Shown here piece by piece: positions 3,799-6,700 of a stretch of DNA of 64,000 bases. The notes beneath the pieces are model-generated. The model worked only from the letters and a program-made list of their open reading frames with translations, was not told the DNA's origin and ran no database searches. The stretch lies in the NCBI GenBank assembly GCA_022842685.1, contig JALHPC010000009.1, positions 5,353 to 69,352 on the forward strand, given 5' to 3'. This DNA is from Candidatus Kapaibacterium sp. Lineage in GTDB: Bacteria > Bacteroidota > Ignavibacteria > Kapaibacteriales > Kapaibacteriaceae. Both the position numbers and the translations under genes were made by a program. How positions within the stretch are numbered: the first letter of the stretch is position 1; every line of letters begins with the position of its first letter.

Positions 3799-6700
3799 CT
3801 AATCTGGTTGATTCTGAGTCTCGTATTCTTCTTTAGCGGCCTCCGGCGTTGTACCAGCTCCAATGTCGAAGTACTGCACGTCGCCGTCACGTGAACCACC
3901 AGTACTTGAGCTCCACCTATATCCCAGCGTTTCGTTCTCCTTCAAATGATATCCAAAGGTGACGCTGAACTTCGTGTCGGTCCCTACTTCGTAGTTGACT
4001 AGTTTCCTCTCTTCGCCATCACTGCCTCTTGCAAAGAACGTAAGCCGAAAGCCTGCCTTACTCTTGGTTGTAAGGTGAAGGAATCCTGACCTGCTATCCA
4101 GCGCAAGGTCTCTTTCGGTATTGCCGTCACTGTCTTGCCACGAAGGAGAGAGATCAATGTTTATCTTCCTTCCTCGTTGTTTCAGGCTTCCAAGTAGAAT
4201 GTAATCGAAATTATCCGATTGATTACCTTTTACTCCTTGGTTGTCATGAAGCGCATTCCACTTAGCAGCTTCTCTCTTTTGTAGTTTGTTACAATTAATC
4301 GGTTCTACCGTGTAGTATCTATCTACGTATATTTTCTTTCCTCCTTTAAGTACTCTCTCAACAACACCAACCGGACCCGACCATGTGACTTTGAAATAGG
4401 CAGAGCCATCTGTTGGTGGTGTGCCTTTCTTACCTTCCAAACCATCCCAATCAATAGCTTGAATTGGAGTATTGCTTGCGAATTGATACGGTGTTAACTC
4501 CGGATACTCCATAGTCAGAGGATCTACACTATAGAACTTACTGAGCGTAGGGTTATAGATTCGAAAACCGTAATCCTGTGTTCCCGTTTCTTTATCATTC
4601 TCCTTGCCATTATATCCAAATCTATACTCTCCGCTACTAGCTTGTCTCCCTGGAATACCCATTCCAAACGCATAGTAGTCACGTGCACTCAACACATCGG
4701 CTGTTACGCCCGAAGTACCGGCAACTGGAATAGCAGCTATCATCCTTCGATCAGACACTGTAGCCAGTACATTGCCAAGGTGGTTGCTGAGCTCATACTG
4801 TTTGCTGCCACGAGAGATGCTGTCTTGAAATGCCGGGAGCGGTCTGATATTCTGCCAGTCAACTGGTCCTGTGATGCCTTGTCCGGGCGCGGAGATGTTG
4901 ATGCCCGCATTCCATACGCCGAGTCGGCTGCTTCCGTAGAGGTTCATCTCTTGGAGCGTGAAGGCCCCTTCATGGTCGCGGTACGTTGCCATGATGTTGC
5001 CCTGAGCATCACGCACGTAGTAAGTGGCCGTCTTCGTTGCTGCAACATATTTGCGAACTCTGTTGCCCAGCGCATCATACTCAAAATATAGGTCTTCACT
5101 TGTTGACTTTCGAATGGCTGTTATTTTACCCTGCAAATTCCACTCAATTATGCTAATGCTCTCACTTAGGTCTTGTATGAGGTTGCCGATAGCATCGTAC
5201 TTGTAATTTCCTTGCGTTTGGTTGTCAACATCCGTTACCGTTCCATTCACGGGGTTGGCCTCAGGGTAGTTCAATCCGGCAACGGCGTCGTTTACGTACG
5301 CAAGGCGATTAGTGGCATTCGTCGGCGGCGTTGTCATGCTTGGAATAACGTTGTTTGCAGCATCGAGATAGTGATACTGCAAACGGTCCATGTTCGGGTT
5401 CGTAACGCTGCCGTTTCGTTTCATGCTGAGGATGTTGCCGTTGCCGTCGTACGAGAGTTCCATTCGATAGGCATCATTCGTTAACAGCAACTGTCCGGTT
5501 GGCAAACTCTCAAATGCCTCCTGCTGTTTAATACGATTCAACACGTCGTAGCGGTAGTTCATTCCAAGCCCACCCAGTCCCTGCAGCCAAGTGTACATGC
5601 GCGAGATGTTGCCGTTGTATAGTGGCTGCACGTCACCGGTGGCAACATTTATCGCACTCGTTGGATTGAGCGATGAGCTTATTGCGCTGTAGTCATCGGT
5701 GTAGTACTGAAGAACATAGCCGAAGGCGTCAGCAGCAATGGGACTGTTGATGCTACGGTAGCCGGGGCCGCTAGTCATCTGCGCAGGATTAGTTTCGTTG
5801 ACTACGGTTACAGGTTGTCCGTTGACTATAACCGTCTGAGGACTACCGGGTTGCTCCAGTTCAATACCATCGCGCCCGGCATCCTGACTCCGTTCCTGTG
5901 TTGTGCCGTTGACACCCTTAACCCAGCCCTGCAGTGTATAGATGTAGTCGAGCCCCTGCACACGCAAGTGGCCAAGTACGGTGCGCGCTAGTGGACCATG
6001 TCGATAGTAGAGGTACTCTGCATCAACGTCCCACAGGATGCCCTTACTGCTTGATTCAACCTTCGTTAGCCGCAGTTCCGAGTCATATGTGTAACGATGT
6101 CTATACTCATCTGGCTGGCCGGGCGAGTACCGTACTTCGTTTACCTTCCCACTTACGAGATCGAAATTGTAAGCTATCGCCTTCGTACCCAGAGGTGTAT
6201 TCGGGTAGTCCTGGAGAAGCAAGGGCACGTTACCCGTTACATCATACGTATAGTGTGTTGCGTGACGATAGTCAGACGAGTACTGTTTGGCGTCATCTTC
6301 AAAACTGAATACACCTGCCACTCTTCCGCGCAAGTTATTCTGCCCACTTAGTCCGAACTTTCCAGACACAGCCGTTGAGAAAACGGCATCATACTGCGTG
6401 AACGTAATCTCGGCCCGTGGCTGAGAGTGAAGATAATTCTTCCAGTTACTGTAATCAGAAACGATACTTTGACTTAGTGGACCATTTAACCGAAGCTTGC
6501 CGCTCTCGACAACGCGTCCTAGCTTATCGTAATACGTGTAACTGTATGCGTTCGTTGACTGCTGCATAGCGTTCTGTGAGGCGGCAATACGTCCCAACTT
6601 ATCATACAGAAAGGTCGAACGTCCCGCATCCGGTGTTGTCTGCCATGATAGCTGATTGAGCGAATTGTATGCGTAGTTGGTAACAAAGGCATGTACAGGC

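Follow-up and report, generated by a model that had tools for sequence, protein, structure and literature searches.

Whether the last 210 residues of a giant RHS/YD-repeat protein are a toxin, and of what kind, is the question raised by a gene of Candidatus Kapaibacterium sp. (GenBank assembly GCA_022842685.1, contig JALHPC010000009.1, positions 5,353 to 69,352). This stretch of 64,000 nucleotides (nt) is referred to below as the window, and positions are counted from its first letter. An earlier note had placed a 210-amino-acid (aa) C-terminal domain after IDWDGLEG, the expected cleavage region of the RHS aspartyl protease, and had called it a candidate novel effector. It gave no strand, and the sequence that it described was exact: residues K2158-D2367 (KKGTPPTDGS...ETQNQPD) are encoded at 3802-4431 on the minus strand and are preceded by ...NTPIQAIDWDGLEG, and the match to the RHS core model ends at residue 2155. 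The gene and its C-terminal parts are laid out as follows.

3799 to 10902, minus strand: RHS/YD-repeat cocoon gene, 2367 aa, from the list of open reading frames (ORFs), with its stop codon at 3799-3801.
4438 to 4677, minus strand: RHS repeat-associated core, residues 2076-2155, ending in IDWDGL (NCBIfam TIGR03696, 53.6 bits against a cut-off of 32.5).
3802 to 4437, minus strand: variable cargo tail, E2156-D2367, 212 aa, delimited by the ends of the homologue alignments.

Relatives of the RHS protein numbered 358 at E<=1e-10, the best of them 58-66% identical and collinear with it to residue 2154. In the 119 relatives that were fetched, the alignments overwhelmingly stopped at residues 2154-2159, and apparent extensions past this boundary were judged to be noise. 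The tails beyond it are 180-310 aa long, a range that includes the studied tail, and sort into 92 clusters, in which the studied tail is a singleton. When shells were compared over their last 700 aa, the 25 most similar pairs spanned 77-91% identity, and 24 of them (those at 77-89%) carried unrelated tails. The tail slot of more distant Bacteroidota relatives holds Gln_amidase, Toxin-deaminase, EndoU, Tox-HNH-HHH, MPTase3, GH-E, CdiA_C, M23 and VanY domains. Since alignments stop at the boundary, similar shells bear unrelated tails and toxin domains fill the slot in distant relatives, it is well supported by sequence comparison that the 210-residue tail is the exchangeable cargo tip of a polymorphic RHS family. 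A comparison of the C-termini of orthologues, which had been proposed together with the domain, thus gave the pattern of a conserved shell and a varying tip. A tail domain recognised by Pfam was found in only about one eighth of the relatives among the matches listed. An unassigned tip is therefore normal for this family, as the other seven eighths or so of the listed tails equally lack an assignment.

The tail is genuine coding sequence and not a chance reading frame. A codon model trained on neighbouring genes scored it at +29.8 bits in its own frame, while the two alternative frames received -42.8 and -124.5. Both of its halves scored positively, and shell pieces of equal size scored 23-59 bits, a range that includes the value of the tail. 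The plus-strand frame at the same position was stop-rich. GC content at third codon positions (GC3) was 0.35-0.37 across the core/tail junction (codons 2068-2267), compared with 0.49-0.63 in the preceding shell windows. A drop of this kind usually marks a recombined tip cassette. Inside the tail, GC3 shifts from 0.37 to 0.52.

The part of the protein in front of the tail is a recognisable cocoon. YD/RHS repeats are present in the shell (TIGR01643 YD_repeat_2x, 25.1 bits, cut-off 15.8), the Pfam RHS_repeat model scored 20.4 bits, slightly below its cut-off of 22, and residues 1776-1952 matched the Rhs structure 7q97 in a PDB sequence search. The core ends in the sequence ...NTPIQAIDWDGL. Three further features bear on export and cleavage.

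10837 to 10902, minus strand: putative Sec signal peptide, residues 1-22, MKHTLVTLVTLFSLTLCPDILA followed by VS, inferred by reading the sequence.
9634 to 9792, minus strand: DUF6443 domain, residues 371-423 (Pfam PF20041, 28.4 bits against a cut-off of 27.8).
4561 to 4563, 4522 to 4524 and 4450 to 4452, minus strand: presumed aspartyl-protease triad R2114, D2127 and D2151, read from the sequence.

DUF6443 is common to most Bacteroidota relatives of the RHS protein. The spacing of the presumed triad is 13 residues from R to D and 24 from D to D, the same as that of R2103/D2116/D2140 in a solved bacterial teneurin-like protein, where these residues are the arginine and the two catalytic aspartates of the cryo-EM structure (PMC13018210). 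The boundary motif is the variant DWDGL, not DPxGL. By analogy with the DPxGL site and the teneurin-like triad, cleavage would fall after L2155 and the predicted released fragment would be E2156-D2367, of 212 aa and about 23.7 kDa. Its start, E2156 (window 4437), lies two residues before the tail start given in the earlier note. On balance, and by no wide measure, we consider it probable that the tail is the exchangeable cargo of a Sec-exported RHS/YD-repeat cocoon belonging to a conserved multi-gene system, self-cleaved after L2155 and released onto or into a foreign cell. The protein would be exported by the Sec pathway in a Kapabacteria/Ignavibacteria-like bacterium and would cleave itself after L2155, the shell would enclose the soluble 23.7-kDa fragment, and the fragment would then be set free onto or into the foreign cell.

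Two further observations concern the shell. The top PDB sequence match of the RHS core (residues 2069-2154, window 4438-4695, minus strand) was the mosquito salivary gland surface protein SGS1 (8fjp, E 9.7e-13), which ranked above the bacterial Rhs structures. In addition, some 340-400 residues of the closest relatives, P0003 and P0014, are missing here between residues 1142 and 1208 (window ~7280-7480, minus strand), N-terminal to the YD shell.

Searches for relatives of the tail were almost entirely empty. It had no match in Pfam or NCBIfam at E<=1, its sub-fragments had none in Pfam at E<=10, and PHROGs, PADLOC and PDB sequences likewise gave none, which bears out the earlier description of the domain as unassigned; it fits no known toxin family. 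DARPin-fusion matches in the PDB sequence scan were repeat artefacts over 22 residues. Compared with 118 other tails of the family by phmmer and hhalign, the best probability was 3%. No relative was found in GTDB genomes, IMG/VR, plasmids or phages, and a match to a Rhizobium ABC transporter at E 0.2 was dismissed as noise. A word-indexed search of 5.8 billion proteins gave no match to the tail and did not find the parent protein P0002 either, although the collection contains it. An exhaustive phmmer search of 1.84 billion representatives, which likewise failed to return P0002, gave a single match. Clustering at 50% hides tails under representatives with other tips, and related tips on similar shells could have escaped because RHS proteins with similar shells were collapsed under differently tailed representatives. 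The orphan status of the tail is thus less secure than it appears, and negatives for RHS tips from both large searches warrant caution.

The single match, at E 1.3e-7, was to a eukaryotic protein that has five C2 domains, and the repeats of this protein match Pfam C2 at 5.7e-23. It raises the possibility that the tail contains a C2-like Ca2+/phospholipid-binding domain aimed at eukaryotic membranes. A profile of the C2 repeats aligned with the tail in hhalign at 82% probability over 49 columns and scored 20.8 bits on it, against at most 6.9 bits in 5000 shuffles; the loop-1 aspartates (DNQG...SDNF) are aligned. The significance of the match is inflated because it sums five paralogous repeats, each insignificant library-wide: taken singly against the tail, the repeats reached 5.5-11.4 bits and independent E-values between 2e4 and 1e6. 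Pfam C2 (PF00168) did not match the tail at E<=10, the similarity is local, and the match was picked post hoc from the whole library. We regard the C2 similarity as a weak lead, and a membrane-directed C2 domain as very unlikely.

By composition and predicted structure, the tail divides into two modules and a short extension.

4147 to 4431, minus strand: module 1, tail residues 1-95, basic (computed isoelectric point, pI, 9.75), holding the 49-residue C2-like stretch (tail residues 52-100).
3847 to 4146, minus strand: module 2, tail residues 96-195, acidic (pI 5.3), a predicted seven-stranded immunoglobulin/fibronectin type III-like (Ig/FnIII-like) beta-sandwich in an AlphaFold2 (AF2) model.
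3802 to 3846, minus strand: acidic C-terminal 15 residues (PEAAKEEYETQNQPD), pI 4.1, a low-confidence predicted helix.

No internal repeat connects the two halves. Run without an alignment on the whole tail, AF2 gave a nearly all-beta model with a predicted local distance difference test score (pLDDT) of 47, on which fold searches were uninformative; across most of tail residues 1-95 the pLDDT was 32-39. Tail residues 96-200 alone were modelled at a pLDDT of 70.4 (68.6-70.4 over five models) and a predicted template modelling score of 0.65. In this model residues 96-195 form a two-sheet sandwich with the predicted arrangement of an Ig/FnIII fold. It resembles the sandwiches of RbmA, FnIII, GbpA, arrestin-type proteins and phage tips, all of them binding or scaffold modules.

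This predicted fold bears on two other explanations of the tail. The earlier note had seen in the spacing of TTKS and ENE a hint of an ADP-ribosyltransferase (ART), which would here carry a degenerate R-S-E signature made of R88, TTKS 122-125 and ENE 165-167. Read by eye, the spacings of about 35 and 43 residues fit the ART range, and Tc-toxin and teneurin-like tips are sometimes ARTs (PMC13018210). In the model, however, the TTKS...ENE motif sits within the sandwich, on consecutive hairpins at pLDDT 70-87 and with no helix following TTKS. An ART fold with the R-S-E signature on canonical strands was not found, and no ART appeared in any of the fold-search lists for the tail models. The hint is accordingly unsupported, and an ART here is extremely improbable. 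The second explanation makes the tail a non-toxic cargo for binding or adhesion, or else a structural domain: an Ig-like module and a basic peptide would serve attachment or signalling, analogous to the reuse of the scaffold by metazoan teneurins. The predicted likeness of the C-terminal half to known binding sandwiches is in its favour, as are the lack of both a catalytic motif and a family match and the absence of an immunity gene described below. We consider such a cargo unlikely. If the tail is instead the released cargo of the exported cocoon, the basic module of about 95 residues would more likely be the active part and the acidic sandwich a binding or targeting module. Since no catalytic signature is recognisable, the activity would be either new or non-enzymatic.

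Two other candidates for the tail were rejected. A C-terminal sorting domain of the type IX secretion system gave no TIGR04183 or TIGR04131 match (NCBIfam, E<=1), a 15-residue acidic extension follows the sandwich, and other members of the family end in nuclease domains. A membrane-inserting glycine-zipper cargo, or one like an outer-membrane protein (OMP), was ruled out by the hydrophilic nature of the tail (grand average of hydropathy -0.87), which has no hydrophobic segment. Several tips of the closest clade (P0005, P0006, P0008, P0020 and P0027; P0004, P0009, P0011 and P0012) are glycine-zipper/hydrophobic or Gly/Ser/Thr/Asn-rich and all-beta, and one has an aromatic last residue, as outer-membrane barrels do. 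This suggests that membrane-active cargos are common in that clade, unlike the hydrophilic tip studied here.

No immunity ORF follows the RHS stop codon at this locus. Its expected place is taken by the following.

3543 to 3767, plus strand: remnant of an ISL3-family transposase, reduced to its last 74 aa and running convergently to the RHS gene; it matches Pfam DDE_Tnp_ISL3 (E 1.4e-5) over profile positions 186-239 of 240.
2276 to 3542, no strand: about 1.3 kb of non-coding or degenerate DNA in the expected place of an immunity gene, with all six frames stop-rich and negative in the codon model.

The RHS stop codon and the 3' end of the ISL3 remnant are 31 nt apart, and a second ISL3 copy was not found within the window. 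The boundary of the element cannot be mapped through relatives because these are only 37% identical, and the last few residues of the tail might be derived from, or altered by, the insertion sequence (IS). Between 2276 and 3542 no Pfam match of note and no Rfam match or tRNA was found, and a terminator scan downstream of the RHS gene was empty as well. This stretch has the look of decayed DNA that separates the RHS gene from the gene beyond it.

These remains could mean that the tip is disabled or truncated, an ISL3-mediated rearrangement having removed the original 3' end, the immunity gene or both, and the tail being an open-frame leftover. The closeness of the remnant to the stop codon, the frameless DNA that follows, the missing immunity ORF, the failure to find a tail relative in the searches and the GC3 change inside the tail would all fit such a history. 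Against it, the 210-codon frame is open and both of its halves score like the rest of the gene, the C-terminal half is predicted as a complete seven-stranded sandwich and not a fragment, and the tail is of normal length for the family. Furthermore, five relatives' loci that are free of IS also lack an immunity gene, so that an IS is not needed as an explanation. A disabled tip is, in our judgement, improbable.

The five distinct closest loci without an immunity gene are L001, L003/L005 (the same species), L006, L007 and L008. What comes after the RHS gene at these loci is either a convergent housekeeping gene or one that encodes a protein of about 1000 aa, the latter homologous to the 1034-aa protein encoded upstream in the window. 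Because no immunity gene is present here or at those five loci, the target would not be sibling cells; it would perhaps be other bacteria, with the producer never intoxicating itself, or eukaryotic grazers as for Tc toxins. At two loci of Chitinophagaceae, L017 (12719-12967, 82 aa) and L018 (13148-13690, 180 aa), ORFs begin 4 bp after the RHS stop. They accompany EndoU and Tox-HNH-HHH tips and are candidate immunity proteins without a Pfam assignment.

A conserved array of genes for proteins of 1034, 528, 1630, 569 and 236 aa ends here with the RHS gene.

10904 to 11614, minus strand: conserved partner of 236 aa, encoded directly upstream of the RHS gene, with 30-38% identity to its positional counterparts in L001 and L003.
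11611 to 22802, minus strand: four further partners of 569, 1630, 528 and 1034 aa in an operon-like array, homologues of which adjoin the RHS gene elsewhere.

The 236-aa protein was considered as the cognate immunity protein and rejected, as it is conserved across loci (L001, L003) whose RHS tails differ; judging from this conservation, it is an accessory factor. Exact look-ups of this partner and of the RHS protein yielded no record. Homologues of the array lie beside the RHS gene in L001, L003 and L005-L008, in permuted order. The gene for the protein of about 1000 aa comes after the RHS gene in L003, L007 and L008. The proteins of the conserved array measure about 1000, 520-650, 1970 and 236 aa, and the protein of about 1970 aa is split into 1630 and 569 aa here and in L001. 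Pfam found only DUF11, CBM_4_9 and DUF928 in the partners, and those of 1630 and 1034 aa have no relatives among PDB sequences. The array may be an undescribed delivery apparatus.

Comparison with described systems places the locus near the following. RHS/YD-repeat polymorphic toxins include the Rhs effectors of type VI secretion systems (T6SS) and WapA (Zhang et al. 2012, PMC3482391; structures in PMC8636562 and PMC8765631). With these it shares the YD-repeat shell, a core with an aspartyl-protease site, a swapped C-terminal cargo and the shift in composition at the core/tip junction. Unlike them, it has a putative Sec signal peptide and an N-terminal region of about 1500 aa containing DUF6443 instead of PAAR/VgrG adaptors, the motif D-W/L-D-G-L-E rather than DPxGL, no downstream immunity gene, and giant partner genes with almost no recognised domains. 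Members of the same family in Chitinophagaceae and Flavobacteriia (P0077 with EndoU, P0083 with Tox-HNH-HHH) are 35-40% identical and have the same boundary motif and tail length, with a giant partner protein and a gene of about 250 aa upstream. Their recognisable nuclease tips and the small ORF 4 bp past the stop have no counterpart here.

Bacterial teneurin-like proteins (PMC13018210) also have a Sec-exported surface RHS shell around a cleaved polymorphic C-terminal domain, export and cleavage being predictions in our case, and the R/D/D spacing is identical. Their tips include non-enzymatic membrane-active and OMP-like beta-rich cargos (PMC13018210). They are defined by an FN-plug, NHL and a YD-shell, whereas Pfam found no NHL or FN in the full RHS protein at the sequence level, and no teneurin was found in its PDB sequence search; the N-terminal 1500 aa may nevertheless match them by fold. 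Their tips average about 15 kDa, against 23.7 kDa here, nearly all of them have an immunity gene directly downstream, and the family has not been reported from phyla of the Bacteroidota group (PMC13018210). In Tc (ABC) toxins, the TcB-TcC RHS cocoon autoproteolytically frees a variable C-terminal toxin (the TcC hypervariable region), and, their targets being eukaryotic, these toxins do without an immunity gene (PMC7861908). The present locus resembles them in consisting of multiple components with very large proteins and in lacking an immunity gene. It differs in that Pfam and PDB sequence searches found no similarity to SpvB, TcdB-mid or TcA in the RHS protein or its partners, and its host is a free-living Kapabacteria/Ignavibacteria-type bacterium, not a known pathogen. 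The absence of an immunity gene together with the giant-protein array, reminiscent of Tc toxins, suggests targets other than sibling cells.

Several points weigh against the reading of the tail as cargo released from a Sec-exported cocoon. We infer its toxicity from its position alone, and cleavage and delivery are likewise predictions. Having no homologue, the tail offers no residue conservation to read. Toxins do not typically have an Ig-like sandwich, which is a fold of binding or scaffold modules. For the N-terminal half the model is poor, with the pLDDT of 32-39 given above, and the roles assigned to the two halves are a guess. Given the ISL3 remnant 31 nt from the stop and the 1.3 kb or so of dead DNA, the tail may also have lost its 3' end, or the locus a former immunity gene. 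Of the candidate novel effector, then, the cargo slot and the lack of an assignment stand. The wording was nevertheless too strong for a tip that shares its lack of assignment with about seven eighths of the listed tails, whose toxicity follows from position only, which has no immunity gene and at whose 3' end an IS remnant lies. A bolder proposal makes the tail the founder of a new family of effectors that act in a new or a non-enzymatic way. Its delivery would fall to an undescribed Sec-dependent RHS system of Kapabacteria/Ignavibacteria, made up of five or six giant proteins and lacking immunity genes, which would act in the manner of Tc toxins against eukaryotic grazers and not sibling bacteria. 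We consider this proposal as a whole rather doubtful.

An unassigned RHS tip alone is commonplace and would not surprise a specialist. Should the tail be toxic, the known range of polymorphic toxin tips would gain a new fold or activity, one without a relative in the searched databases. The genomic context adds more than the tail does, namely an RHS clade with conserved, giant, domain-less partners and consistently without immunity genes, and it points to a delivery system and a target range unlike those of T6SS Rhs effectors and teneurin-like proteins. As the system is also present in the cultured Stygiobacter electus 09-Me, the idea is testable.

By its YifB protein, the host is a relative of Candidatus Kapabacteria and Ignavibacteria. 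The RHS array lies within a lower-GC stretch of about 25 kb, and GC content steps from ~0.49 to ~0.57 near 25 kb (window ~24882-25550). Contigs of assemblies that are ~99% identical (GCA_036770285.1, GCA_006365075.1 and several SRA runs; L011-L013, L015) end at or near this edge. In GCA_036770285.1 two extra genes, one of 787 aa and one of 387 aa with Y_Y_Y/guanylate cyclase domains, lie between the sites corresponding to window 25299 and 25469. The array looks like a strain-variable island. Beyond the decayed DNA on the other side of the RHS gene, window 560-2275 (minus strand) encodes a 571-aa OLD-family ATPase/TOPRIM protein that matches the PADLOC models AriA, Old and GajA and has a GC content of 0.39, against ~0.50 nearby. 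It is likely to be an anti-phage defence gene, whose partner, if any, would lie beyond the start of the window.

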